A stretch of 64,000 nt of DNA from a virus. Taxonomy: Duplodnaviria; Caudoviricetes. Below the pieces are notes generated by a model. The model had not been told where the DNA came from. It saw only the letters and a program-made list of their open reading frames with translations, and made no database searches. The translations under genes were made by a program, and so were the position numbers. Where the stretch lies: the IMG/VR virus record IMGVR_UViG_3300032244_000155, positions 5,306 to 69,305 of that record; one strand, given 5' to 3'. Shown here piece after piece: positions 5,147 to 34,546 of the stretch (position 1 is the first letter of the stretch; every line of letters starts with the position of its first letter).

Positions 5147-8100
5147 TTAATCTAAATCGCCGACTGTTTTATCTGAACGCCACATTTGACAAGACCAATA
5201 ATTTGCTTTCCATTTCGGACCTGGATTATCGCATCCATGTCTCGCTCTATAACTTTTTAATCTTTCTGGATCATCACGTTTGATTTCCATGTTTGGATCA
5301 CCAAATCTAACAATCACAACATCACCATTTGGTCCCATAGTATAAACGCCAAACTTTTTATTTTCGCCAGGTGTTCTAAAAGGATCATTTAATTTAACAG
5401 TTTTACCTTGATAATCTGCTTCAACTAAAATATTTTCCCAATCTACAGTTTCGACAATCTCATCTTTACAATCACCACAACATGACGTTTCTTCATCAAA
5501 AATCTTTTTCTTTCTTTGTGTAGTGATATCATTCAATGTATTCATTACACTATTTGCTGAGTATTTAGCTGTAATGATATCTGGGCTTTGTCCTGGAGTT
5601 GCTCTTGCATAAGACATTCTTAGTGCATCTGTTCCCCATTCTAATGCTTCAGCGAATTTAGAGAATTCTTCATTCTTTTTTACTTTAGATGCTAAGTCAC
5701 TATCCGCTCCACCCCAGGTACCTTGACCTTTTGTAATGAATGAATTAACTCTAGCAAATGCCCATTGCTGTGGCGTAGTTCCTGGACGATGACCACCTTG
5801 CCATGCTGCCATACCACGATTGTAGACTTGTTTCAATATGCTATATGAAATGCCTGACTTTTCAGCTTTCTTTTGAAGTCCCTCAATTTCTTCGATGATT
5901 GGTCTAAATTCTTCATATGCTGAACCATAATCACTTGCTGGTGCGTCCATTGTGTATTGGTCAAGAACGGAATCATCGATTTCGCCAGAGTATTCTCCAT
6001 CGTCATCCTCTTCTTCATCATCAACTTCATTTGGATTGAAACCATCTTCAAATTGTAAATAGTCTGATGCAGTTGCAATGTAATCAGCAGCCTTTGTAAT
6101 CTTTGAAAGAACCCACTGATCTGGTTCTTCGTCCATTTCATCAAGCATATCTAATAAATCGTTTGCATCTTCAATCATGTTTGCTAATTCGATTTGAGCC
6201 ATTTCGACTCCATCCATTTCTGGAGAGTCTTCGTATTCATCTTCATAATCATCCATAGACTCTTTAACTACATTGAAATAGTCTTCAGCGTCTTTTTTAC
6301 TCTTAAATGTTCTAGTCTCGCTTGATAGTTTTCCAGTCACTTTCCATTCAGTTCCATTTCCAGACTTTCCTGCTGGAGTAGAAATCTTTTCAATCTTTGG
6401 TGTAGACTTTGTTGCTGGAGTAATATACTTTTTAAATTTATCATCAACAGATTCTTTTTGTAGTTGCTTCTTTGTCATTCCAAATAGACTATCAGAAGAT
6501 AAAACCATATCTAGAAGTGTGGATAGCAAATCATTTGTCGCAGACTTTTCTTGTGTGCTTAATTGATCGCCAGATTTTAGTTTCTCCAATGAACGCTTGA
6601 GAACAGATAACATCTTTGTGTCAGCTAATCCCATGCGAACTAATTGGTCTAGTCTTGATGATTCTTTTCTATCCATAGATTCGCCATACATCTTTTTAAA
6701 TTTAAGTGTGTGTTTGGATTGAGGCATTTCTTTTTCTCTCGCTTCTTTATCTCCTGGTGCATCTTCATAACCAGACTTATCTGAATCAGATTTTGGTCCA
6801 TTCTTTTCAAAATGAGCTGATCGTAATTCTTTTGTATTTTTATCTAATCCAGCATAATATTTTTTAGGCTGAGTGCCTTCTTTATTTTTAATATCTTGAT
6901 CTTGAGCAACTTCATTCAAATTAAAAGTCTGAGAAAACAATTCATCTATTGTGCTTTCTCTTCTCATCATTGCTTTTTGTTTTCTTTGCATTTCTTTTTG
7001 TCTTTCAGCACCAACTAGTCTTGCTGCAAGTTTTTTAATTCCAGGCAACATCTTCTGTAGTCTTGTGTCTACGCTAATCTTTTCGCCCGTGCTTAATGAT
7101 GCATAATTCTTGCCACCAGTGATTCTTGCTCTAAACAATTTGTATGCATCTTTAACTGCACGACCTTTTAGGCGTTTAGGATCAGCAAATCGTTTTGCTT
7201 GTGCAAGTCTTGTTCTGAGCAAACGCTTCTGCATTCTCTTAAATCTTTGACCTCTTGCAAGTCTTTGCGAATAGCCTAAAACAGATTCGTTTTTCTCGTC
7301 TTCTTTTTTCTTTTGATCGTGAGAATTAATCATTGCTGTCAATCTTCTTTCTCTATCTTGTGCTGCAGCGTATGGCTTGTTTTTCTCTCGTTCTCTTTCA
7401 ATTGCTCTCTGTATTTTTTGTGCAGCAGTTAGTTTGATCTTTGCTTCTTCTAATTCTTCGCTCATACCACCACCTATGTATTTGTCTAATAGTTTTTTGA
7501 CTTTAGATTTGTTTTTTGATTTTGGATATAAATCACTAATGATCTCATCTCTTCCATCTGAGTCTGCTTCTGCATACATTTTTCTAATTTGAGAACCAGA
7601 GAATGCAAGTTCGCCATTGACTTTAAAATCATGTTTCTTAGTTACAAAAATATATGCATGTTTATCGAACGATTCGCACTTATTAATACTAATAAATGGC
7701 TGATAATATGCCGGCGATCCATCTTTCTTTGTATATTTCATCGGATCTCGCTCTGAACGAACAAGAATAAGAATATCATTAGTTTCGTCATAACGATTCA
7801 TAATCTCTTTAGGATTAATTGGTTGTATCACTTGAACAAAATGATCCGTAACACCAGCCTGTTGTGCTAGAAACTCTTTATCTTTAAATGGAATTGGTCG
7901 CACTTTTGTATCATTGCTTGATGCAACATAAAAATCTGGAGTACGAAATTCACTTTTAGCTTGTGTATAACTACTTAAATGTCCAGCATGAAATGGCTGA
8001 AAGCCCCCACCATATACTACAACGATTTTTGGTTTAGTTTTTGCTTCTTTAATAAATGATTCTTTCATTGCGCTTCCTTTTTGCCAGCCTTTGATAATGT

Positions 8101-9301
8101 CTGGAGAAAAATTTGCATGACTAAATTGCATTCTATCAACTAATTTAACCGCATTACCTTTAATTTTGTCAATTGCAACATATCCTTCAACACCAGTCAC
8201 TTCGTAACCGTTTTTTGTCAATAAAAATGTATGCAACTGTTTTACTTCATCCATCTTTTTAATTAGAATCAATTTTGCTTCTGCTAATAGGTTGATTAGC
8301 GTGAAAATGTTTTCTAAATTTGATTTGTTTTTGTCAGAAAAGAAATTTAAAACGTTTTGTTTTTTTGTCATTTGGGTAGCGCGACCCTTTTCACCTTTAC
8401 CAGCAGCTTGTTTTTCGTAATATTCTTCAATATATTCTATCACTTCTTTAACATGCGCTTTGACGTTAGTAATTTTTAACTGAGCACGAACTTTTGAATT
8501 GTTGAATGTTTTAATTCTTTCGATTAAATCAGCATCAGTATTAATATAGTTTAAAGTTGATGCATCTAATTTTTGAAATACTTTTCCAGCTTCAGATAAT
8601 ACTGAAGTTACTTTATCATATTCATCTTTTGTTAGTGTTGCTTTACCAGAAACATCATGATAGTCTACACCAGTCATCCAAACATTTGAATTTTGAGTTA
8701 GTGAACCAATAACATCTTTTCCAAAGACTGCTTTCATTGTTTCAAATGATTCGCCTTCGTAAATTGTGTGCCAAACAATACCTAATTTTGCTCTTTTAAT
8801 ACTTTTAGCAAGTTCTGTATTTGTTGGGATTGCATAGACTAACGTATTTGGATGAAACGTGACGTATTCTTCTCCGTCAATTGTTTCTTGTTTTAAGTCT
8901 GATTCTGTAAATAATAGATCGCCTTGAATGACACCTTTGATGCCGATCTTAGGTAACCACATTAAACATGTTTTAAGTTTTTCTGCTAAATCTCCAGAGG
9001 TGTCTTCATCAATCTCTGCTGGAGTTTTATATACTTTTGGGTTTTTATTAAAGACGCCTTTCTTTGCAACAAAGAATTTTCCGTCTGTTGGATCTTGTCC
9101 TGCAAATATTGCTGGAGCACCATCCCATTTAACTGTTATGTTAACTTTCTTTTCGGAATGACCTGCAAGCATATTTCGCACATTTCTAAGTGCATTAATG
9201 CTATTTCTTGCACCATTGACACCACCATTTAGAACATCATCTTCTGCATGCTCTAGATGAACGTTTTTATTTTCTATAAGATATTGTTCAAATTTAAACA
9301 T
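5147..9301 (-). CDS. 1384-aa polyprotein: ligase-like nucleotidyltransferase domain (DUF6267-like), HxGH nucleotidyltransferase (cytidylyltransferase-like), and several small conserved phage domains
   Basis: KWDG, QGDLL, EGYV and VKL motifs in the N-domain; GGFQPFHAGH in the second domain; C-terminal KQVYNRGMAAW..GHRPG..QQWAFARVNSF and RFGDPNMEIKRDDP..RARHGC..YWSC modules. Confidence 0.7.
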   Translation of the reverse strand: MFKFEQYLIENKNVHLEHAEDDVLNGGVNGARNSINALRNVRNMLAGHSEKKVNITVKWDGAPAIFAGQDPTDGKFFVAKKGVFNKNPKVYKTPAEIDEDTSGDLAEKLKTCLMWLPKIGIKGVIQGDLLFTESDLKQETIDGEEYVTFHPNTLVYAIPTNTELAKSIKRAKLGIVWHTIYEGESFETMKAVFGKDVIGSLTQNSNVWMTGVDYHDVSGKATLTKDEYDKVTSVLSEAGKVFQKLDASTLNYINTDADLIERIKTFNNSKVRAQLKITNVKAHVKEVIEYIEEYYEKQAAGKGEKGRATQMTKKQNVLNFFSDKNKSNLENIFTLINLLAEAKLILIKKMDEVKQLHTFLLTKNGYEVTGVEGYVAIDKIKGNAVKLVDRMQFSHANFSPDIIKGWQKGSAMKESFIKEAKTKPKIVVVYGGGFQPFHAGHLSSYTQAKSEFRTPDFYVASSNDTKVRPIPFKDKEFLAQQAGVTDHFVQVIQPINPKEIMNRYDETNDILILVRSERDPMKYTKKDGSPAYYQPFISINKCESFDKHAYIFVTKKHDFKVNGELAFSGSQIRKMYAEADSDGRDEIISDLYPKSKNKSKVKKLLDKYIGGGMSEELEEAKIKLTAAQKIQRAIEREREKNKPYAAAQDRERRLTAMINSHDQKKKEDEKNESVLGYSQRLARGQRFKRMQKRLLRTRLAQAKRFADPKRLKGRAVKDAYKLFRARITGGKNYASLSTGEKISVDTRLQKMLPGIKKLAARLVGAERQKEMQRKQKAMMRRESTIDELFSQTFNLNEVAQDQDIKNKEGTQPKKYYAGLDKNTKELRSAHFEKNGPKSDSDKSGYEDAPGDKEAREKEMPQSKHTLKFKKMYGESMDRKESSRLDQLVRMGLADTKMLSVLKRSLEKLKSGDQLSTQEKSATNDLLSTLLDMVLSSDSLFGMTKKQLQKESVDDKFKKYITPATKSTPKIEKISTPAGKSGNGTEWKVTGKLSSETRTFKSKKDAEDYFNVVKESMDDYEDEYEDSPEMDGVEMAQIELANMIEDANDLLDMLDEMDEEPDQWVLSKITKAADYIATASDYLQFEDGFNPNEVDDEEEDDDGEYSGEIDDSVLDQYTMDAPASDYGSAYEEFRPIIEEIEGLQKKAEKSGISYSILKQVYNRGMAAWQGGHRPGTTPQQWAFARVNSFITKGQGTWGGADSDLASKVKKNEEFSKFAEALEWGTDALRMSYARATPGQSPDIITAKYSANSVMNTLNDITTQRKKKIFDEETSCCGDCKDEIVETVDWENILVEADYQGKTVKLNDPFRTPGENKKFGVYTMGPNGDVVIVRFGDPNMEIKRDDPERLKSYRARHGCDNPGPKWKANYWSCQMWRSDKTVGDLD

Positions 9302-14722: not shown

Positions 14723-15023
14723 CTTTGTACCTTTTCTCAGCTGCGTTTATTGATTCCAACAAAAGATCATTTAGAATTGTTCCAACAACTTTTTCGAAGT
14801 TTTCATCGCTCTTTAGATTTTTATATTCTTCTGGTAGAATATCATAATTGAAGCTGATTGTAAATGTTCCGTCAGGATTCTCTTCATCACCAAAACTAAT
14901 TTCTCCAAAGTTAAATTCTATACCAGCATAATCTCCAGTTAGAATTTTAATCGTAGCGACCGCATCTTTATCTTTGTACTTAATATCTGTTTCAGTTACT
15001 TGATAGTCTTCATTCATTTTCAT
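14679..15023 (-). CDS. 40: Head vertex assembly chaperone gp40-like
   Basis: Lies between uvsX and 41 as in T4; [17 protein letters not shown]; start moved to 15023 (15017 also possible). Confidence 0.65.
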
Positions 15024-16077
15024 ATTCTTCTTCCTCAACTCTATCTTCACCAACAATAGATTCTTGACCATATAAAAATTCTTTCTTACATGCTTCATCA
15101 ATCAAATCAAGAATTTCTTTAGTGTAATACTTTTCTGGCTCTTCGTTGATTGATTTGCCGAATACTTTGTTTCCATTAGGAAGTTCGTATCGTGTAGATA
15201 CTTTCTTAAAGATACCATACTTCTCAGCAATGTCAAGTAGACCATAGTAACGATCCAGACCCGTACTATAAGTTAGGCGAATCTCTACTGCAGAATGCTC
15301 TTTAGTGAATCGACTCTTTTGCAGTCTTGCTCTAATGATATTACCAACAACTTCTGTTCCATCTTTGTCTTTCTTCTTCGAAAGAAAAACAATTGTCGAA
15401 GCAGTATACTTTAGACCAGAACCACCAGACATTTCTTTTGTTGGAACATATGCACCAACAACATCGTAAACATGATTAGTCACAAGCAAAGGAACATTGA
15501 TTTTTGCAAGTTTCAAATTCAAAACCCTAAATGTTGCTTTTAGAATTGACGATTTGGTCATGTCTTTGGTTTCTTTGCCTTCTGCTGTGTCTTCCATTTC
15601 TTTTGTAGAAGATAGCTGACCCATAGAATCAAGAACCATTAACATTGGCTTACGCTTCGCTAATGGTTGTGCTGAATACTTATCAATGATCTGCAATGCT
15701 GTATGGCGAAACTTTTGAATTGTGTCTGGCTCAGAGATAACAACCCGTTTAGTGTCTACGCCACGAGACTCCATCATATGTTTGGTTACTGCAGCTTCGG
15801 TATCAAAATAAATTACACCACCTTCAGGATTATCGTCTAGGAATTGCTTTACAACACCAAGGACGAAAAACGTTTTACCTGTTGCAGATTCACCTGCAAA
15901 CGCTGTGACTTTGTTGTTAGGCACTCCCCCGTATATACTTCCACTAAGGACTGCGTTAAGAGCATATGAACCAGTATCAATAGTACCAGTAAATTCAGCA
16001 CTAGCATTCCCGTCAGCAAGTATTTTAGTGTCTTCATCTTTCAATTGCTCAACTAAATCTGTAAAAAAATTGCTCAT
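15010..16077 (-). CDS. uvsX: RecA-like recombinase UvsX
   Basis: [37 protein letters not shown]. Confidence 0.95.
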
Positions 16078-16093: not shown

Positions 16094-17212
16094 TCAAATA
16101 AAGAAACTCTTTAGAGAGGAAACATGCTCGACATTCCAACCTATAGTATTAACGATTGTTCTAATCGGATCCAGATATGCTTTCTCAAACTGAGTTTCAT
16201 AGTCAATGTACTTCTCTAGTTTAAACTCTTTTGGTAGAATTGTCAAGATTGCAAACACGTTCTCTTGTACTGGATTTGGAACTTTCATGTAGCAGAATTT
16301 AATCTTCTCGCCATCTTTGATTGTCTGATACTTCTTTGTTAGTTTCTCTTTCTCCAAAAGATGATTGTAAAGAATAGCACCACGAACATGAATTGGTGTA
16401 CCCTTTGTGTAAATATCTTTTGAAGACTTGTACTTCTTTATATCACTAACTCCTCGAGGAAAAGCAATGTCCTCAAATGCTAGTGTTGTAAAAGTTTTTC
16501 TGAAATCTGCAACGAATTCCTGAAACTCCGATTCGGTACCATTCATCACAATCTTTAGAGAGTCCTTAATCTTATCTCTACATGACATTGGAGTCGAAGA
16601 CTTGACTGCTTCAATGCCCATCATCTTTAGTTTAGGTTCTGCAAAACGAACACCTTCCGAATCATAAACATTTAGAATGTATCGCTTCTTTGCTGTCCAG
16701 ATACCTTTGTTTGCAATCACTTCACGCTTCATCTGCATCTTCTGATCAAATGCATTCATGTAATCCGCTAGTTCTTGATATGCTTTATCAATGAACGGTT
16801 CAATTTTCTCTGTGCAAGCCTTGTCGATAAAATCAACAATTTTTTCTTTTTCAATATTCTTAGATCCGTAGACCATATGTACCAACGGACCAAGATTGAC
16901 GTATACAGAATCCGTATCTGAGGCAATGACATAATCCACACTCTTCGTCTTTAATAGTTTATTGAAGAAGCCGTTTAGCTTGTCTTCAATCCAACGAATA
17001 CTCAATTGCCCAGATAGTGTGATGGCTTCTGCTTGGCGAATGTCGAAGAATCGAAACCATTCGTTACCAAACTATCCGAGCGCACCGTATGCCGAATTGA
17101 GTTGCACTTTCTTTGCAAGCTGAAGATTCTTGTATTTAGAAATGTGCTGCTCAACTTGCATACGATACGCCCGAAGGTTCTCCGTAGTAAGTTGTTTTAA
17201 ATTTTTTTGCAT
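16094..17212 (-). CDS. 43B: DNA polymerase gp43, C-terminal subunit (43B), interrupted by an in-frame TAG at codon 47 (17072-17074)
   Basis: From ATG 17212: ..[40 protein letters not shown].., continuous in frame with the 303-aa ORF holding motif C (ASDTDSVY); 1119 nt = 373 codons. Confidence 0.85.
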
Positions 17213-17221
17213 ATCCAACCT

Positions 17222-18685
17222 TTATAAATTTCTAGATTTTAGTTCCAAATCGATTCGTTCGAGTTCTTTCTGCGCTTCAATCATTTTCTTTTTATACATT
17301 GAACGATCATCATACATGCGCTGCATCATTGCAGGCAGAAAGCCTTGCTTGTCACGTTTAAAGTAATAGCCATTTGCAGCCATACAATATTCGCTTGATG
17401 CTTGATGTTCTCCACTCAACAAATTATCAATAGAAATATTTTTGTGTATGCCTGAAACAATAGTCTCAGGCGAAACATTGTACTGCATGATCAGATGTGG
17501 ATAAAGAGAATTCAAATCAAAAGAAACAACCCATTCATGCATACCTACAATTGGATCTTTAACATATGCACCAGCATACTGTTCGCTTTTGATTGTCTTC
17601 ACTTTTTGTGGAACAACTACACCACGATCCATCAATTCATTATGAATGAGAACATCCCACATACGAACTTGAGAGAATACATCTTCATAATTAACCTTCG
17701 CATCATATGCAAGTGCAAGAGCCATGTCAATCAATTTCATCTTAGCATCAATGCGATCAACCAATTCAACGTCATGAATGTTATACTCGATAAACTTTTG
17801 AAAGTTGGTTCGATACAATTGATGCAGATTTTCTACTTCAGAATAATCTAGTTTCTTTTCTCCTAGTTCAACGAATGAGATATGATTAAGAGAAAAACTC
17901 TCATGCTGTGCATATGTAAACTTCTTATAAAGTTCAAGATAGTCTAGCGTAGCAATCCCAGTCAATTCATAATTGACAAATGATTTCCATGAAGTACCTT
18001 CTTTCTTTGAAGTGCTAGAATTCTTTTCGCCAACCTTTCTCCAAGGCGACAATCGTTTAACTGTATTCTCTCCCATCAATCGATTAATTCGATTAACAAG
18101 ATAAGGAATATCGAAAAACTTAATATTCCAACCAGTCACAATGTCGGGCGAAGTCTCTTCCCATTTTTCTAGAAAAAACATGATTAATTGGTTTTCATCA
18201 CGGCATTGTGTATACGTTACATCATTTCGATCATTATTGAATTGATCACAACCAAACACATAAAACATTCCATCAATCTTAAATGTAATTGCTGTGATTG
18301 GTTCAGACGCAGAAGCTGGCTCAGGAAATCCATTCTCGGAGCCAACCTCAATGTCAATGTTAGCAATTCGAATTACAGAAGTGTCGTAGTCTACTTTGCC
18401 GGGATACGCTTCATTTGCATAAACGTATTGATAGTTTGTCAATCCGTAGATAGAAAAGTTGTCTACATCCTCATACCTTTTGATGAACTCATTTGCATTT
18501 GACATTGATCCCTGACGAACTGGCGAAACGAATTCGCCAGACAGAGTTTTGAACTCCGTCTTTTCTTTTGATGGTATGTATAGAGTGGGATCATAATTTA
18601 TTTTGTCTATGTGTCGTTTGCCGTTGTTGTAGCCACGAACTAGAATCTGATTGCCATATCGAGAAAAATTTGTGTAGAATTTCAT
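17222..18685 (-). CDS. 43A: DNA polymerase gp43, N-terminal subunit (43A: exonuclease and motif A)
   Basis: ExoI DIEV, ExoII GWNIKFFDIPY, ExoIII YNIHDV, motif A SFDLNSLYPH; stops within the fingers. Confidence 0.95.
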   Translation of the reverse strand: MKFYTNFSRYGNQILVRGYNNGKRHIDKINYDPTLYIPSKEKTEFKTLSGEFVSPVRQGSMSNANEFIKRYEDVDNFSIYGLTNYQYVYANEAYPGKVDYDTSVIRIANIDIEVGSENGFPEPASASEPITAITFKIDGMFYVFGCDQFNNDRNDVTYTQCRDENQLIMFFLEKWEETSPDIVTGWNIKFFDIPYLVNRINRLMGENTVKRLSPWRKVGEKNSSTSKKEGTSWKSFVNYELTGIATLDYLELYKKFTYAQHESFSLNHISFVELGEKKLDYSEVENLHQLYRTNFQKFIEYNIHDVELVDRIDAKMKLIDMALALAYDAKVNYEDVFSQVRMWDVLIHNELMDRGVVVPQKVKTIKSEQYAGAYVKDPIVGMHEWVVSFDLNSLYPHLIMQYNVSPETIVSGIHKNISIDNLLSGEHQASSEYCMAANGYYFKRDKQGFLPAMMQRMYDDRSMYKKKMIEAQKELERIDLELKSRNL

Positions 18686-26480: not shown

Positions 26481-28666
26481 GCAATTTCCTCGATTACCTT
26501 GGAAAGCAACACTCGGTTGGTCAAGCGCCCACGGTTCATAGCCAGGAACGCTGTCTTGAGTTTGCGAGCAGAGACCGCACCTTCACCGAGAATATCTTCC
26601 AATGAATCATCATCCGTATTCAAATCACTTCCGCCAGGAATTAAAAAGTATTGATCATATCCGTAATTCGAAACTTGATAAAACTTTTGTGTACGGAACA
26701 CTTTCAATTCGGTATCAATTTTGAAAGAAGGGATTCCAAAACGTTGGGCTGCACTACTAAAAACACTCTTACTCTTACCGAGAATGTAGAACCCAATCAA
26801 ATTACATCCAGTCTTTTCTTTAAGAATCTGGAGTAATGTAGGAGTAACACCAGCAACTCCAACTTTGTAATTCTTTTTAGTGTCCTCATCTTGAATGTAT
26901 GACGATTCATATCGAGTTGGTGCTCCAATTCGCTCTATCGTTTCACCTGGAGCAATTGCAGTATAAAGTGTACTGGAATCTTCACCGTCAGTAATAAACG
27001 AAACGTTTACGATTTCGGTACGGGTACGCTTGCGAAAATCATTAATAACCGACGGAGCAACTTTAATTGTAGAATTTAAAGGAGTGCCTCCTAATCGCAT
27101 ATCATGGCTAATATGGACATAGTGATATCGCCGACTATATGAATAAGTTCGACTATTCGTTGGATTGTAGCACCGAGCATAATTCAATAGGTCATTCGCG
27201 AATTTGCGATATGAAGCATTCTTCATACTGCTTGAAAGAATATTCAGAAGACTAAAGTTATCGTAAAAACCTAATTCGCCTGGAATTTCAGAATGACGAT
27301 CTTCTTGCGACTCATGGATATACTGAGTGGTAAATGCATAAACATCAAAAGGAATATTCACTTTACGGCAAAATGTCGTAAGGGTAAGCAATTGCTCAAT
27401 TGTTCCTTCAATGTTATCTGTCATTGAACCAGACCAATCTACGAAAATTACAATCCCGTGATTCTTACCAGCTGCAACAGAACCAATCTTGCGGAAGATA
27501 TCGTCATTGAATTTGTAGGTATGCAGTTTGTTAGTATCTAACTTACCGCTATCTGCAACTGTAATGCGACGATTCTCTGTTGCTTTTTTACGCATTTCAA
27601 ATTCTTTTACAAGATAATTGATTGCATTTTTATTGCGCTGCTCAAAAGCATTCAGAAGAGTATTGTCGTAACCATCATTGTCGGTATAATAGTCTTCATT
27701 AAAGAATTTATTCTGCAATTCTTTCCAATGCACAATGTAATTCTTTGCTTGGAACTTAGTTTGACTTGGAAGAACACCAATAGCAATTTTGCGATCTTCG
27801 ACCAATTGACTTAAAGACTTAGCTAGGCTTTCATCTGTAAGAGACTTTACTGTTCCACGATAATCCGACAATTCTTCATCATCAGAATTATTATATGATT
27901 CATTGGAGAATCCACTACTTGAATTTTCACCGTCAGTTTCTGGATCAAAATCTTCTGGATTCTGATTCTCTAAATCACCCAATTCATCTGAGTAATTATC
28001 AAAATCATCTTCATCAAACCCACCAAAATCTTCCTCTTCATCAATGTCACCGCGTTGGCGCTGAGCCTCAGCATTTTGTTCAGCTTCTTTTTTGCGCTGC
28101 TCTAATTCACCTTTGCAATAATCGTAAAGGCGAGTGGCAATGCCTTTCACTTCATCAAAAGTCTGTGCATTCTCAATTTCTTGAACAAATGCATTCTCTT
28201 CTGCATTATTGAATCGAACGTTAGCGAAAGCGCCAATCTTGAAATGCAAATTGATTCGATCAATCAGCAATAGTTTGTTTACGTCTTTGCCTTTAATCTC
28301 GAAAAAATCACGCTCGACAAATTGGCGATAACCAATTGCAAACGATTTGCGCAGACCGGGATAACGATCTTTAATCATCCGTTCAATTCGGGCATCTTCA
28401 ACAACGTTTAAGAATGTACCGAATTCTGCACCACCAGCCTTATGGCATTCAATGTACTCAACTGGTGTATCTAATGCATGACCAATCTCATGGCCGTAAA
28501 GCAATTCTTGAATTTCTGGAGTAATGTCTTGCCACATTGGCAATGTGATCTTACGGTTTTTAAGATCAAACGAAGCAGTCGGAACCTTGCGGTGCTCTAC
28601 AATCAGATTCTCTGTTGCAAGCAATCGAACTAAGGTGGACTTGGTAAATTGTACGTTCTCAGTCAT
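26477..28666 (-). CDS. HExxH metallopeptidase-like plus VWA (MIDAS) protein, CobT-like partner of the AAA+ ATPase
   Basis: HEIGH, NVVEDARIE, FVDWSGSM, GGTPL, ITDGE; start moved to MTENVQ (28666). Confidence 0.85.
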   Translation of the reverse strand: MTENVQFTKSTLVRLLATENLIVEHRKVPTASFDLKNRKITLPMWQDITPEIQELLYGHEIGHALDTPVEYIECHKAGGAEFGTFLNVVEDARIERMIKDRYPGLRKSFAIGYRQFVERDFFEIKGKDVNKLLLIDRINLHFKIGAFANVRFNNAEENAFVQEIENAQTFDEVKGIATRLYDYCKGELEQRKKEAEQNAEAQRQRGDIDEEEDFGGFDEDDFDNYSDELGDLENQNPEDFDPETDGENSSSGFSNESYNNSDDEELSDYRGTVKSLTDESLAKSLSQLVEDRKIAIGVLPSQTKFQAKNYIVHWKELQNKFFNEDYYTDNDGYDNTLLNAFEQRNKNAINYLVKEFEMRKKATENRRITVADSGKLDTNKLHTYKFNDDIFRKIGSVAAGKNHGIVIFVDWSGSMTDNIEGTIEQLLTLTTFCRKVNIPFDVYAFTTQYIHESQEDRHSEIPGELGFYDNFSLLNILSSSMKNASYRKFANDLLNYARCYNPTNSRTYSYSRRYHYVHISHDMRLGGTPLNSTIKVAPSVINDFRKRTRTEIVNVSFITDGEDSSTLYTAIAPGETIERIGAPTRYESSYIQDEDTKKNYKVGVAGVTPTLLQILKEKTGCNLIGFYILGKSKSVFSSAAQRFGIPSFKIDTELKVFRTQKFYQVSNYGYDQYFLIPGGSDLNTDDDSLEDILGEGAVSARKLKTAFLAMNRGRLTNRVLLSKVIEEIA

Positions 28667-28689
28667 ATGAATTTCTCCCTTACCCACCT

Positions 28690-28718
28690 ATAGTAGCAAA
28701 CCACCAACGCGCTGTCAA
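28690..28718 (-). promoter_or_regulatory. Early sigma70 promoter
   Basis: TTGACA-17 bp-TACTAT; the -35 contains the upstream TGA stop. Confidence 0.8.
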
Positions 28719-29320
28719 GCAGCAACTGCTTCTTCCTCAACCTGTTGTGGCTGGACAACAGAGAGAATTTTTGGACGGCTGATCACCGTCTGAGGAGCAC
28801 CACGATACTCGCGATGGCTTTTCACAGTCGCAACCACTTGAGCCGTCTGACCCTTCGAAGGGAACTCAGCAGTGCCGGTATAAACTACAGCGTTACCGTT
28901 CTCATCCTCACAGATACGAAGGAGGGACATTCCCGAATCGCACCAGTGATAGCGAGTCCGCTCAACTTCAATTTCTGCCTTGACAGTCAAGGTCATGGTT
29001 ACTTTTTTACCTGGCTGACCGACGTGGGTCATAGTAGCAATCTTAGCAACACGTTCAGCTTCGAACTTTGCTTTACGCTCTGCTTGGGTTGCAATAGAAT
29101 TGCGAAGGGCGAGCACCTGCTTTTCGGTCAGCTTGCCATACTTGTCAAGAGCGGTCAACAGACTTTGATAGAACGGACTCTTGTTGGCGTTAGCCCACAG
29201 GAAGTCGAACATCTCCTGCGAGTCGGGATAGGTACGATTGAACGTGGTCCGAGCATTCATTACGATGTTACGCTTGATGCCAGCCTCATACGCGGACGGG
29301 TTGTGAATCTGTGAATGCAT
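28715..29320 (-). CDS. Early protein with probable C-terminal OB-fold
   Basis: Start moved to MHSQIH (29320); LDKYGKLTEKQV then HVGQPGKK..TVKSHREYRGAPQTVISRP. Confidence 0.65.
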   Translation of the reverse strand: MHSQIHNPSAYEAGIKRNIVMNARTTFNRTYPDSQEMFDFLWANANKSPFYQSLLTALDKYGKLTEKQVLALRNSIATQAERKAKFEAERVAKIATMTHVGQPGKKVTMTLTVKAEIEVERTRYHWCDSGMSLLRICEDENGNAVVYTGTAEFPSKGQTAQVVATVKSHREYRGAPQTVISRPKILSVVQPQQVEEEAVAA

Positions 29321-29357
29321 TTTCGAACTCCCTTGTTTCTGTCTCACCACAAGATCA

Positions 29358-29385
29358 ATTCTACTCTGATCACCACGAAAGTCAA
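29358..29385 (-). promoter_or_regulatory. Early sigma70 promoter
   Basis: TTGACT-16 bp-TAGAAT; homologous to 13117-13144. Confidence 0.75.
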
Positions 29386-29395
29386 GGACTTTCTC

Positions 29396-29438
29396 GGTGT
29401 TGTACAAAAACAACACCATGATGTTGTTTTTTTGCTAC
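29396..29438. promoter_or_regulatory. Operator-like palindromes GTTGT-N6-ACAAC
   Basis: ggtgttgt-acaaaa-acaacacc (29396-29417) and imperfect gttgt-tttttt-gctac (29423-29438). Confidence 0.55.
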
Positions 29439-30133
29439 TTTATTGCAATAAATGCTGTGAATCCGTGATTTTGCCAGAATGTATCCATGCGTTTAAAGTC
29501 AAATCCAGCACCAGCACAAATACTAATTAATTCATTTCGAGTATTCAATTTCATCATATGTCGCAATTCTCTCTCTTTATTTAGAATGTCATCTGATGTA
29601 AAATGCTCTCTTTTGTAATCGTAATAGGTAAATGTGCGAATGTCTTGGATCTTTGAGCATTCGGAAATAGTTTTCTCTGCAAAAATAAATGCACCACCAT
29701 GGCGTAATCCATTGTAAATTTGTTTTACAATATCTCGTCTTTGATTTTCTGGAATGAATTGCAAAGTGAAAATAGAAGTAATCAATGTCGAATCTTCAAA
29801 TTTAAAATCGCGAACATCACCACGATGATATTTCAAATGAAATCCAGATTCAGCATATAGTTCTTCATCTTTGTCGAAGCCTGAAAAGAAATCTTCTTCA
29901 ATTTCAATTCCAAAGTATTTTGCATTTGGTGCAAATGCAATGTTCTGTTCATGCATTGCTTTAAGTAGTTTACCAGTAGAGCAACCAACATCAACAACCG
30001 ATGCATCATTCTCTACGAAATACTCTGAATATTTCAATACGTCATTCCAAAGATTTGTGTATCCGCGAATAGAATGTTCAATGTGTGCATCGAAGCCTTC
30101 TTCTCTTTGTGCGAATGTAAATTTTTGTGCCAT
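29435..30133 (-). CDS. cmoA: CmoA-like carboxy-S-adenosylmethionine synthase
   Basis: FDAHIEHSIRGY, VDVGCSTG, GDVRD, FTLQF, IYNGL..GGAFIFAEK, FWQ..F..IAIK match the E. coli CmoA pattern (SVPGY, DLGCSLG, NFTLQF, GGALVLSEK, WFQ). Confidence 0.82.
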   Translation of the reverse strand: MAQKFTFAQREEGFDAHIEHSIRGYTNLWNDVLKYSEYFVENDASVVDVGCSTGKLLKAMHEQNIAFAPNAKYFGIEIEEDFFSGFDKDEELYAESGFHLKYHRGDVRDFKFEDSTLITSIFTLQFIPENQRRDIVKQIYNGLRHGGAFIFAEKTISECSKIQDIRTFTYYDYKREHFTSDDILNKERELRHMMKLNTRNELISICAGAGFDFKRMDTFWQNHGFTAFIAIK

Positions 30134-30134
30134 T

Positions 30135-31370
30135 TTATAATTCCTTGTACGGTTTCAATATTTTCTCATATACATTGGACGCAAGTGCAGCCATCATCTT
30201 GGGCGCAACCATTCTACCAATTCGTTCAGCCTTTTTATCGAAGTTACCAGTAAGAATAAAATCGTCAGGCATACCCATTATAATCTTTAATTCTTTGATT
30301 GTAAACTTCCGATTCTTTTCATAGTGGAAAACACCAGACACAGACTTCTGATTACCACGTTGTGTGATCGTTGGAGATGGTAAATCTGGGCATGGTCGAA
30401 TCATGTTAAATAATGATCGTTTAGGATTGATAGAGATAAACTCTTTGTCACTAGGTTTCATATGTCTTGACGGATTGAATGGAAGCATCTCAATCCATTT
30501 CTTTTGAAACCCATTCTGAACATAATCATACAATTCTTTTTCTTCTTCAGGATCATTCACTACATTACCAATTGCTGATTTTAGACTAATGTGCTTAGGA
30601 GTAGTCTTATCTGGACAAGTCATAGTATTGATGTTTAGAAAATTGATTCCAACTTTTTCTGCAACATCAGATCGAACACAAACAAAAAACAAACGTTCTC
30701 TAGTTTGTGGAACACCATAGTCTGCAGCACTCAATACATGATATGTTGTAACATATCCAGGTTCAATATTTTCAAATGCGTTTTTAAACTCAATTAACTT
30801 CTTTGCAGCTTCACCCATTGTGATGCCTTTCACGTTCTCTGCAATAATAACTTTTGGCTTAATCTCTTTTGCAATTCGAATGTACTCAAAAAACAAGTCT
30901 TCAATTGCTTCCACAACTTTACCATCAGAATAAACTTTGACACCAGAACTTACTGTAGACTCAGTAACATGTACAACTTCATCTGATTCAAAATCGAAAT
31001 AGCTTTCTGCAAAATGTTTCTCCGAACCTTTCCAATTCTTTTCACGCTTACCAGCAACAGAGAATGCAGAGCATGGAGGCGAACCATCAAGAATATCCAA
31101 TTCACCAGGTTCTAAATTTGCAACCTCGAGAAATGTTTTACCAGTCAATGTTTTAATGTCACCAGGAATAATCTTTGTGTCTGGAAAATTCATCGAATAA
31201 GTTTTAATTGCTTCTTCAACGAATTCATTGATTGCAATCACTTTACCGCCAGCCAATCGATATCCAGTCGAACTTCCACCACCACCAGCAAAGGTGCTAA
31301 CTACCGTAAATAAATTTCTATCTGATGATGCTTTTACATCAGCAATCGTATAGTGTTCGTATTTCGCCAT
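30135..31370 (-). CDS. DNA cytosine-C5 methyltransferase family protein, candidate carboxymethyltransferase
   Basis: Motif I FAGGGG, IV GSPPCSAFS, VI ENV, VIII QTRERLF, X altered to IGRMVAP; start moved to MAKYEH. Confidence 0.9.
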   Translation of the reverse strand: MAKYEHYTIADVKASSDRNLFTVVSTFAGGGGSSTGYRLAGGKVIAINEFVEEAIKTYSMNFPDTKIIPGDIKTLTGKTFLEVANLEPGELDILDGSPPCSAFSVAGKREKNWKGSEKHFAESYFDFESDEVVHVTESTVSSGVKVYSDGKVVEAIEDLFFEYIRIAKEIKPKVIIAENVKGITMGEAAKKLIEFKNAFENIEPGYVTTYHVLSAADYGVPQTRERLFFVCVRSDVAEKVGINFLNINTMTCPDKTTPKHISLKSAIGNVVNDPEEEKELYDYVQNGFQKKWIEMLPFNPSRHMKPSDKEFISINPKRSLFNMIRPCPDLPSPTITQRGNQKSVSGVFHYEKNRKFTIKELKIIMGMPDDFILTGNFDKKAERIGRMVAPKMMAALASNVYEKILKPYKEL

Positions 31371-32154
31371 AATTTTTCCAGTCCCTATAAACGTCAAGCA
31401 TACGCTTGCGGTTTTTAATATTGATATCTTTACATTCTAACAGAACTTCGAATGCTTTGTCAATCCCAGCACCAAGCTGAAGATTGATATGCGGTTTCGG
31501 TCTTCCTATTTTTTGGAACTCCGGAAACGCTTCTATAACATGATGTTTCTGGTAAGGTTTATTTAGCTGATACCAATCGTACTGCATGAAAAAATCTTTA
31601 ATGGTACTATCTAAGTAAGGCGCAATGAAATCTTTTTTATATTTTAAACAAAGGTATTTTTGTTGCATGTAACCAACGGGATTGCTACTGCCGAAGTATT
31701 CGGCACGAAACTGATCAAATAATTCTTTTGGTTCTTTGTAATGAATACATGCTTTCTTTGAAACTCCGTAGTGACCGTCTGCTGCCCAGCCAGAGATAAC
31801 TTCTTTCTCTTCTATTTTTGGATAGACGTACAAGAATGGAAACGTACACTCATAATGTGTTTTCTTAATGCAAGCAAACTTAGTTCTTAAAGTATGAAAG
31901 TCTTCAATTAAATTATTAATTGGAACTTCAACTTTAGTGCATCTCCAACCCATTATGTTTGATGCATCAATAGCTTTCTCAGAATCATATGTTGGATTGT
32001 TTTCTAAACAAAATGTGTATGCATGAACTTTTTTACCAAGTCTATGTGCAGTAAATGCTACAGATAAAGAATCAACTCCGCCAGAGAGTAGAACAGCAAC
32101 TTCATTCTCTCTGGAAGAATCTTTTATTTTATTCTCTAGTAGTTTATCAATCAT
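31339..32154 (-). CDS. Asparagine synthetase-like ATP-dependent amidoligase (synthetase domain only)
   Basis: PP-loop LLSGGVDS, SGWAADGHYG (cf. SGEGADE.FGGY), APYLD (cf. PFLD); no Ntn glutaminase domain. Confidence 0.8.
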   Translation of the reverse strand: MIDKLLENKIKDSSRENEVAVLLSGGVDSLSVAFTAHRLGKKVHAYTFCLENNPTYDSEKAIDASNIMGWRCTKVEVPINNLIEDFHTLRTKFACIKKTHYECTFPFLYVYPKIEEKEVISGWAADGHYGVSKKACIHYKEPKELFDQFRAEYFGSSNPVGYMQQKYLCLKYKKDFIAPYLDSTIKDFFMQYDWYQLNKPYQKHHVIEAFPEFQKIGRPKPHINLQLGAGIDKAFEVLLECKDINIKNRKRMLDVYRDWKNYGEIRTLYDC

Positions 32155-32596
32155 GAAGCAATCTTACTGAAATAATGCAACGCATAAGAAATTCTAATCC
32201 AGACTGATCGCGATAGTCTTCAGCATAAAAGACTTCTTTAATACCAGAAGCATATATCATTTTAGCACAGTCCATACATGGCGCACAAGTGACAAACATT
32301 GTAGCACCTTCACCAGATTCATTGGATCTCGCAAGTTTACCAATTGCATTTAATTCTGCATGAAGAACTTCTGGTTTAGTTTTTAAAGTCTTAATTGGAA
32401 TTCTATCAGAAAAATAATCAACAACTTCATCTTCGCAATTGTTATCCCAACCAGCAGGCATACCATTGTATCCAATAGAAATAATTCTATCATCTTTTAC
32501 AATGATTGCTCCAACTTTTCTTCTTCTTGCACTACTCAACTCTGCAAAGAGTTTTGCAGTTTTCATGTACGAACCAAGATACTTTTCTTTAATCAT
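32147..32596 (-). CDS. cd: dCMP deaminase
   Basis: GYNG, HAELNAI, PCMDC zinc ligands; start moved to MIKEKY. Confidence 0.93.
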   Translation of the reverse strand: MIKEKYLGSYMKTAKLFAELSSARRRKVGAIIVKDDRIISIGYNGMPAGWDNNCEDEVVDYFSDRIPIKTLKTKPEVLHAELNAIGKLARSNESGEGATMFVTCAPCMDCAKMIYASGIKEVFYAEDYRDQSGLEFLMRCIISVRLLHD

Positions 32597-32837
32597 CAAT
32601 AAACTCTTTTTGAAACAGGCGACGTTCTTGTATAGTTGGGATTTCAAATGTCTTTCTAGGATTAGCACACATAACGCATTTCGGATTTCCACAACTTATT
32701 GGAGATTGTTTTGCTAACTTATGTGGTTGCTTAACTGGAATAAGATGTTCTTTTGCAATTGCAACTTGTCGATTGATATGATTCTCTTTTTGTTGCAGTC
32801 TGCGGGAATGTTTGAATTTATCTTCTTCATTACTCAT
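32589..32837 (-). CDS. Conserved hypothetical protein with Cys cluster
   Basis: CGNPKCVMCANPR. Confidence 0.65.
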   Translation of the reverse strand: MSNEEDKFKHSRRLQQKENHINRQVAIAKEHLIPVKQPHKLAKQSPISCGNPKCVMCANPRKTFEIPTIQERRLFQKEFIDD

Positions 32838-34546
32838 TTTGTTATCCTCGAAAAATTGTTGACCTTTTCGAACTTTATTACGTTCATGAACTTATCTTGT
32901 AGCATGTCTCCTTTATGTGATATTACAAATAGATTAGAACCTTCAAGCATTCCAAGAATCTTCATCAAGTCTTCGGTTCCATTAGTATCTAGTGATGAAT
33001 CAAATATCTCATCAAGAATTAATATGTTTGTGCTTGCAGAATTTTTTAATTTAGCAACTGCTCGCCAAGTCAACATCAATGCCATATCAATTCTCTGTTT
33101 CTCACCTTCACTAAATGATGCATAAGTAAAATCATCACGATGCCTAGATTTGATTGTCTCTTTGAACGATTCGTCCAAATTGAAATTGACAAAGAAGTCT
33201 AATGATGCAAGATATTTGTTTACTAATTTATTAATGATTGGAATATATTGACGAATGATTTTCGTTTTGATTCCAGTATCTTTAAGTAAAGTAGTCGCAA
33301 CTTCATAGTATGCACGTTCTTCGGTGATCGATTTTATCTCCGTTTCAATTTGTAGTAGATTATCATTAAGCCCAGACAATTTCGTATTTTCAGTCTGTAA
33401 GTCACTTTTGTTTTCTTTTAGTCTTTCGATCTCCTTTTCCAACGATTTGCTATAACGCTGATTGACAATGATTTCGCTCTGCTCTGATGTTAGATATGAA
33501 TTTGTGTCTTGAATCTTTTCATCAATCAATTCAATTTCATCTTTACGATTTTTTAGAGTTTTGATTTCTTTATCAATTTCTGAGATAGCTTTTTCAACTT
33601 CCTTAAGTTTTTTGTTGCGCTCTTCTACAATATGTGTCTTATGGTCTTCCGCAATTCCTTGCTTGCATGTTGGACAGTCGCTATTGTCATGATAAAAATC
33701 AATATCTGTAGAAACTTTAGAAATAGTTTTTTGTAGATTACTCTTTATATCGGACAGCTTTACTAGTCTATCAGACACTTTCTTTTTGTCCGATATCTGC
33801 AAACGAAGATCAGACAATTCTGTTTCATATTCATTACATTTAACTTCGCTTTCGGTAATTAAATTAATTGTGTTTGCTAAGTCTTGTTCTTTTAGAGAAA
33901 CTTGTGTTGCAGTATTCTTTTTGATACTATCAATTAGTTGAATCTGATATTGAATTTGTTCTTTCTTCAAGTCTGATTGATACTTCGCTTGATGGTGTTG
34001 CTCTTTCAATAAAGCAAACTTATCTTTTAGAACTCCATTCATTCGCGAAAAGATTTGAATGTCCAACAAGTCTTCAATGATTGAACGCCTATCCGATGCA
34101 GACAATTGCATGAATGGAATAAACGAAGCAGATCCCAACAATACGATTTGAGTAAATGATTTGTAATTAAGTTTGAGAATAAACTTTTCCAAATACTCTT
34201 GATAGTCTTTTGCTGCAGCATCCTGATTGATCAACTCATCATTGCTATAAATTTCAAACACGTTAGGCTTGATACCACGAACTACTTTGAAAGATTTATT
34301 TCCAATATTGAATTCGATTTCAACCACGCAATCTTTTTGATTGATTGCGTTTACTAGCTGACCTTTGTTTATGTTTCGAAATGCTTTACCAAACAATACA
34401 AAACACAATGCATCAAGCATTGTAGACTTACCAGAACCATTAGCACCAACGATTAATGTTGTGCTATTGTCAAGTAAATTAATTTCTGTATTGAAGTTAC
34501 CAGTCGAAAGAAAGTTTTTAAATCTAAGTTTATTAAAAATAATCAT
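32834..34546 (-). CDS. 46: Recombination nuclease subunit gp46 (Rad50/SbcC-like)
   Basis: GANGSGKS, CPTC zinc hook, FSEGEK, ILDE. Confidence 0.96.
   Translation of the reverse strand: MIIFNKLRFKNFLSTGNFNTEINLLDNSTTLIVGANGSGKSTMLDALCFVLFGKAFRNINKGQLVNAINQKDCVVEIEFNIGNKSFKVVRGIKPNVFEIYSNDELINQDAAAKDYQEYLEKFILKLNYKSFTQIVLLGSASFIPFMQLSASDRRSIIEDLLDIQIFSRMNGVLKDKFALLKEQHHQAKYQSDLKKEQIQYQIQLIDSIKKNTATQVSLKEQDLANTINLITESEVKCNEYETELSDLRLQISDKKKVSDRLVKLSDIKSNLQKTISKVSTDIDFYHDNSDCPTCKQGIAEDHKTHIVEERNKKLKEVEKAISEIDKEIKTLKNRKDEIELIDEKIQDTNSYLTSEQSEIIVNQRYSKSLEKEIERLKENKSDLQTENTKLSGLNDNLLQIETEIKSITEERAYYEVATTLLKDTGIKTKIIRQYIPIINKLVNKYLASLDFFVNFNLDESFKETIKSRHRDDFTYASFSEGEKQRIDMALMLTWRAVAKLKNSASTNILILDEIFDSSLDTNGTEDLMKILGMLEGSNLFVISHKGDMLQDKFMNVIKFEKVNNFSRITK

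Follow-up and report, generated by a model that had tools for sequence, protein, structure and literature searches.

The stretch of DNA analysed here, referred to as the window, comprises 64,000 nucleotides (positions 5,306 to 69,305 of IMG/VR record IMGVR_UViG_3300032244_000155). Its source record, a 69-kb IMG/VR fragment that is 38% complete, encodes a gp23-like capsid protein, sheath, gp41, UvsW, gp46/47 and CobS/CobT-like genes. It derives from an uncultured T4-like myovirus whose capsid protein shares ~65-68% identity with its counterparts in Stenotrophomonas, Pelagibacter, Methylophilales and cyanobacterial myophages. The genes of interest all lie on the minus strand and are named after their counterparts in Synechococcus phage S-B43, whose CmoX (SpCmoX) was described by Yang et al. 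(Nat Commun 17:281, December 2025; PMC12783734). The relevant features are as follows.

29435..30133, minus strand: cmoA, carboxy-SAM synthase ortholog, 232 aa, starting 1 nt past the cmoX stop
30135..31370, minus strand: cmoX, DNA cytosine C5-carboxymethyltransferase ortholog, 411 aa from the ATG at 31370
30213..30215, minus strand: codon AGA of Arg386 (Arg395 if numbered from the TTG), equivalent to SpCmoX R350 and M.HhaI N304
30693..30707, minus strand: CmoX motif VIII, QTRER, residues 222-226, with Q222, R224 and R226 invariant
30831..30839, minus strand: CmoX motif VI, ENV, residues 178-180, invariant among relatives
30939..31022, minus strand: clade-specific insert of ~29 residues (about 116-144), past the catalytic loop and ahead of motif VI
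31071..31082, minus strand: CmoX motif IV, SPPC, residues 97-100, invariant, with catalytic nucleophile Cys100 equivalent to SpCmoX C98
31275..31292, minus strand: CmoX motif I, FAGGGG, residues 27-32, cofactor binding, in invariant columns, with F27 equivalent to SpCmoX F25
31339..32154, minus strand: cmoY, ATP-dependent amide ligase ortholog, 271 aa, matching PF00733 at 1.9e-8
32068..32085, minus strand: CmoY PP-loop SGGVDS, residues 24-29, an ATP pyrophosphatase signature conserved with SpCmoY
32147..32692, minus strand: dCMP deaminase gene, matching PF00383 at 9.8e-23, with an 8-nt overlap with the cmoY start

The mechanically called reading frame of cmoX (30135-31397, minus strand, 420 aa) reaches back to a TTG at 31397; we placed the start at the ATG at 31370 because orthologs begin there. 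The product matches PF00145 at 8e-54 and its translation ends in ...DKKAERIGRMVAPKMMAALASNVYEKILKPYKEL. On the plus strand, positions 30210-30218 read cat tct acc, so that the minus strand reads GGT AGA ATG, or Gly-Arg-Met, with AGA at 30213-30215. A preliminary description of this DNA had reported precisely this codon, giving GRM at motif X of an otherwise canonical C5-methyltransferase. The codon was confirmed directly from both strand and translation, and FAGGGG, SPPC, ENV and QTRER are all present and unvarying among relatives. Two plus-strand reading frames lying antisense over the arginine site (30074-30253 and 30127-30324) were set aside as by-products of the coding strand. The ~29-residue insert, found in nine of 19 aligned orthologs and short or missing in SpCmoX, follows the catalytic loop without a break and is modelled, at modest confidence, as a beta hairpin (predicted strands at residues 115-126 and 131-142, pLDDT 54-75).

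To place the arginine relative to characterised enzymes, a profile was built from eight family members, counting the M.HhaI position from chain residue 260. In this profile, 'riGrmvaP' pairs gap-free with 'qfGNSVvi' of M.HhaI, and the arginine therefore sits at the position of the conserved motif X asparagine, Asn304. M.HaeIII ('iGNAVp') aligns likewise, with the arginine on the asparagine of GNAV. The canonical GN(S/A)V, with its cofactor-pocket asparagine, is absent from CmoX, the same columns reading GRMV, and the substitution proposed in the preliminary description is thereby borne out. M.HhaI and M.HaeIII share with CmoX the fold (Z ~31) as well as motifs I, IV, VI and VIII, but they are SAM users from restriction-modification systems which carry GNSV and GNAV, respectively, where CmoX carries GRMV.

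The preliminary description had also pointed to an engineered precedent, and the literature agrees: in M.MpeI N374K, the introduced lysine forms a salt bridge to the carboxylate of Cx-SAM (carboxy-SAM) (PMC12015181). The HMMER match between CmoX and the M.MpeI structures 4DKJ and 8C56 covers the central motifs only, while the CmoX model matches 4DKJ over the whole fold (Z 28.7). M.MpeI N374K and M.MedI N377K thus resemble CmoX in the shared C5-methyltransferase fold and in having the motif X asparagine replaced by a basic residue. They differ in being engineered, CpG-specific lysine mutants which keep SAM activity, whereas the arginine of CmoX is natural. By analogy with SpCmoX, the window enzyme would, unlike these engineered enzymes, use Cx-SAM exclusively.

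The closest precedent is SpCmoX itself. This enzyme produces 5-carboxymethyl-dC (5-carboxymethylcytosine) at GpC sites, and the wild type accepts Cx-SAM as its sole cofactor (PMC12783734). Its R350 replaces Asn304 of HhaI and touches the carboxymethyl group of Cx-SAM in 8YF3, a 1.9 A crystal structure of SpCmoX with that cofactor (PMC12783734). The S-B43 CmoA is a fast Cx-SAM synthase; CmoY, an asparagine-synthetase homolog encoded beside SpCmoX, ligates glycine to the carboxyl group; and S-B43 virion DNA carries the resulting glycine amide, 5gcxmC (PMC12783734). The same authors called CmoX proteins by an SPPC motif together with an arginine at the R350 position, and gathered 5,615 candidates from IMG/VR, UniProtKB and MGnify (PMC12783734).

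CmoX of the window carries both features (S97-P98-P99-C100 and R386) and aligns with SpCmoX from end to end at 48% identity (E 5e-120), R386 pairing with R350 within the string ER(I/V)GRMV. Among PDB entries, 8YF3 is its top match by a wide margin (E 2.7e-102). The Cx-SAM contacts F25, E47, F48, D69 and C98 of SpCmoX are kept as F27, E49, F50, D71 and C100, in columns that do not vary among relatives. In structural comparison, an AlphaFold2 model based on an alignment of 19 orthologs (mean pLDDT 88.4) matched 8YF3 best, with Z 45.5 and an rmsd of 1.9 A over 332/333 residues; next came M.HaeIII and M.HhaI at Z ~31. The identity to SpCmoX, the equivalence of the arginine to R350, the kept contacts and the structural match together support the proposal, made in the preliminary description from the arginine, of a natural DNA carboxymethyltransferase. 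The R-to-N mutant suggested there as a test of cofactor use has a published counterpart which behaves otherwise than a simple switch: SpCmoX R350N is dead with both cofactors and does not return to SAM use (PMC12783734).

Both flanking genes point in the same direction. CmoA shares 45% identity with SpCmoA across 232 residues (E 2e-70) and is collinear at full length with E. coli CmoA (4GEK and 4IWN; E 9e-20 for 4GEK). Among NCBIfam models, TIGR00740 CmoA fits it best, at 2.9e-27 and 95.9 bits, a score below the curated cut-off of 193.3 bits. Arg199 of E. coli CmoA forms a salt bridge to the cofactor carboxylate (PMC3663124). Residue R188 of the window protein stands opposite Arg199 in the HMMER alignment to 4GEK and one residue off in that to 4IWN; SpCmoA has lysine in the R188 column, and R191 is conserved in both phage proteins. 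CmoY consists of an asparagine-synthetase-type PP-loop domain, has no glutaminase domain, and is 50% identical to SpCmoY over 266 residues (both 271 aa, E 3e-91). With orthologs of SpCmoA, SpCmoX and SpCmoY all present, the window carries the complete published cassette.

Beyond these identities, the two cassettes share SPPC, the motif X GRM and the same Cx-SAM contacts, and both phages are T4-like myoviruses. They differ in several respects. The gene order is cmoY-cmoX-cmoA in the window and cmoA-cmoY-cmoX in S-B43. Nothing in the SpCmoX crystal corresponds to the predicted hairpin insert near the catalytic loop, and the target-recognition region has indels and lower identity. The dCMP deaminase gene overlapping the cmoY start is a further difference; it accompanies cmoY only in the closest relatives (L006-L009, L030, L036, L039, L040) and is missing from that position in most others, for which reason we leave it out of the system. 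The differences in gene order (Y-X-A) and in the 29-residue insert are minor.

The 69-kb record contains no CmoB, the tRNA-directed user of Cx-SAM. A ParB domain, associated with many CmoX genes (PMC12783734), is likewise absent from this record, which is a fragment. A promoter and terminator scan of 28600-32900 returned 15 candidates against 13.5 in shuffled sequence, and since these counts are no higher than in the shuffles, no operon boundaries are claimed from it.

Some other genes of the window deserve mention in their own right. The reading frame downstream of cmoA (28715-29419, minus strand) has its probable start at an internal Met close to 29320, and a promoter-like TTGACT-16-TAGAAT (29385-29358) lies inside its longer form; the protein falls in PHROG families without an assigned function, with phrog_27218 as the best match. 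The DNA polymerase appears split across 16094-18685 (minus strand; reading frames 17222-18685, 16094-17005 and 15010-16077). Of the 856 positions of the full-length polymerase family phrog_262, the 487-aa product of 17222-18685 matches 7-494, the N-terminal half alone; it also matches the 502-position family phrog_2062 in its entirety. A 1,384-aa reading frame (5147-9301, minus strand) matches phrog_455, of unknown function, over residues 11-807 and has a short cytidyltransferase-family match near its C-terminus.

Conservation of the arginine was assessed in orthologs collected by two scans of IMG/VR, which yielded 96 with a readable motif X, 52-99% identical to the window protein. All 96 carry the arginine. 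Of these loci, 73 have cmoA and 65 have cmoY within 10 kb, the gene order varying among them; a Tet/JBP dioxygenase occurs in none of the 96. A Cx-SAM source encoded close by is thus usual for CmoX, though no requirement.

The nearest relatives outside this group offer an informative comparison. The closest cultured non-CmoX relative is a methyltransferase of Methylophilales phage Melnitz (L003:4010-6194, Melnitz-3), which is 40% identical, reads GLM at motif X, with leucine in place of arginine, and adjoins a Tet/JBP dioxygenase gene rather than cmoA. The clade of leucine-type loci to which it belongs comprises 80 loci (L112-L191), of which 64 have the dioxygenase and none has cmoA. On the question of whether the motif X arginine tracks with a neighbouring cmoA, the contrast is clean (73 of 96 arginine loci against 0 of 80 leucine loci), with the reservation that, only two clades being compared, it amounts to about a single evolutionary change. 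The contrast agrees with the TET-linked, GpC-directed phage 5mC methyltransferases described by Burke et al. (PNAS 2021; PMC8256090). Judged from its neighbour only, the Melnitz homolog is probably one of the TET-associated phage C5-methyltransferases of those clades. Such enzymes resemble CmoX in full-length identity (~40%), motif layout and occurrence in related T4-like marine phages, and, like CmoX, attach to cytosine C5 a group on which hypermodification can build. They are distinguished by GLM rather than GRM and by a Tet/JBP neighbour, with cmoA never nearby, and are expected to use SAM to form 5mC, which would then be oxidised to 5hmC. The hydrophobic residue at a cofactor-pocket position in these presumed 5mC methyltransferases may deserve a look.

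A wider view of motif X was obtained by an exhaustive HMMER search, which recovered 18,676 relatives. With each 50%-identity cluster represented by one sequence, 143 of the 150 top-ranked were usable. Among these 143, the representatives nearest the query, the position is held by arginine in 105, asparagine in 28 and leucine in four, with lysine (P0049, P0056) and aspartate (P0107, P0129) in two each, and tyrosine and methionine in one each. Taken with the 96 of 96 orthologs, this prevalence means that the arginine is not a product of chance. On a FastTree phylogeny, the arginine/lysine-versus-other state required 13 changes, whereas shuffling the labels 500 times gave 32 on average and never fewer than 26, so the motif X state is strongly clade-bound. 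Within the family, judging from these sequences, the Arg/Asn state seems to have changed over about a dozen times. Eight look-ups among representative contigs, mostly short and including those with aspartate, found no cmoA, cmoY or Tet gene on the asparagine-type and lysine-type contigs (5-20 kb); the two arginine-type contigs among these look-ups were too short to be informative, and the comparison, being underpowered, carries no weight here.

Several arrangements among the IMG/VR relatives depart from the simple trio. Twelve loci (L055-L064, L078, L081, L085; e.g. L057:10001-12312) carry cmoX in tandem between cmoY and cmoA, the two paralogs having 47-55% and 58-68% identity to the window protein; both copies keep SPPC, ENV and GRM, and the pairs may have two different target specificities. 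Five loci (L065, L068, L079, L090, L092) have an arginine-type cmoX with neither cmoA nor cmoY within 10 kb, in a shared slot running gp47, gp46, peptide deformylase, cmoX, CobT-like, CobS-like. In these phages, host CmoA may supply Cx-SAM and the modification may end at 5cxmC, or the missing genes may sit elsewhere. Two CmoX proteins (L092:8700-9983, L104:10001-11272) have a target-recognition region lengthened by an insertion of 53 residues, which is missing from all other aligned sequences.

Because orthologs of SpCmoA and SpCmoY flank the gene, the predicted product is 5-carboxymethylcytosine and then its glycine amide. In the pathway we envisage, CmoA (29435-30133) would convert SAM and prephenate to carboxy-SAM. 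CmoX would flip the target cytosine out of the helix, Cys100 would attack C6, and the carboxymethyl group would pass from Cx-SAM to cytosine C5, with Arg386 of motif X, standing where SAM-dependent enzymes have asparagine, holding the Cx-SAM carboxylate. CmoY (31339-32154) would then adenylate the carboxylate of 5-carboxymethylcytosine and join an amine, most likely glycine, to give 5gcxmC. Phage DNA modified in this way would be expected to resist host restriction enzymes.

We put at roughly 0.9 the probability that cmoX encodes a functional, Cx-SAM-dependent CmoX whose 5cxmC would be turned into an amino-acid amide, most likely that of glycine. The sequence, alignments, fold, conservation and synteny behind this reading come from the present analysis, while the chemistry would carry over from the S-B43 orthologs, from which we infer the same activity, GpC target and glycine substrate. 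The GpC specificity of the window enzyme is only assumed, given the indels and lower identity of its target-recognition region; it is a trait of SpCmoX that need not extend to the whole family. If the target is indeed GpC, up to 22% of the cytosines in the window (2,556 sites) would be substrates. Depletion of GpC, considered as a hint of the target, gave no consistent signal, with an observed/expected ratio of 1.22 for the window against 0.66-1.24 for related loci.

Assigning the details of the end product is where alternatives weigh most. A CmoX-type enzyme may lead to a different final base, either because CmoY adds another amino acid, ammonia or a polyamine, or because CmoX targets a sequence other than GpC, and we regard such an outcome as unlikely, though worth keeping in mind. 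The identity of CmoY to SpCmoY is just 50%, the published survey includes ligase clusters with other pocket residues and unidentified amines (PMC12783734), and the divergence of the CmoX target-recognition region, with its indels and the nearby 29-residue insert, leaves room for altered recognition. However, CmoY has the length of SpCmoY, aligns with it end to end and, like that glycine ligase, does not have a glutaminase domain. Its E value of 3e-91 is also far past the network threshold of 1e-56 that defines the SpCmoY cluster (PMC12783734), and related phage C5-methyltransferases are generally GpC-directed (PMC8256090). There is perhaps one chance in five that the hairpin insert and divergent target region give non-GpC recognition, or that CmoY adds an amine other than glycine. 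Were this so, the phage DNA would carry an undescribed cytosine hypermodification or modification pattern.

It is very improbable that cmoX encodes an ordinary SAM-dependent 5mC methyltransferase in which the arginine is simply tolerated, with cmoA serving SAM depletion or tRNA modification. Such a reading draws on the intactness of all C5-methyltransferase catalytic motifs and on the some SAM activity kept by engineered N-to-K enzymes (PMC12015181). Asparagine relatives are, moreover, interspersed with arginine ones, and the ~13 switches in 143 representatives make the motif X position evolutionarily labile. Against this, SpCmoX, with 48% identity and the same GRM, took Cx-SAM only, and the arginine does not vary across the 96 orthologs even at 52% identity. 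The neighbourhood is similarly difficult to reconcile with it: cmoA abuts cmoX with a 1-nt gap in a record without CmoB, and the closest non-arginine clade is paired with TET rather than cmoA. That cmoX is a decayed or non-catalytic remnant, binding DNA or cofactor without group transfer, is scarcely credible given its intact frame, the kept catalytic motifs and nucleophilic cysteine, the strong conservation across ~100 relatives and the confident fold.

A functional CmoX in a complete cassette thus remains our preferred reading, and the cassette of the window is a further example of a published system, not a discovery. Little is added in that respect, since the enzyme class, the role of the arginine, the crystal structure and the census of candidates are already in print. 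The locus does illustrate that a real cofactor-switch signature is recoverable from sequence alone. The clade combining leucine with TET, the interchange of arginine and asparagine, and the phages with tandem CmoX or with CmoX lacking cmoA may be of interest to specialists and enzyme engineers. For the biology of these viruses, the window indicates that the CmoA-CmoX-CmoY system reaches beyond cyanophages, into another uncultured T4-like lineage with ~100 close relatives in IMG/VR.
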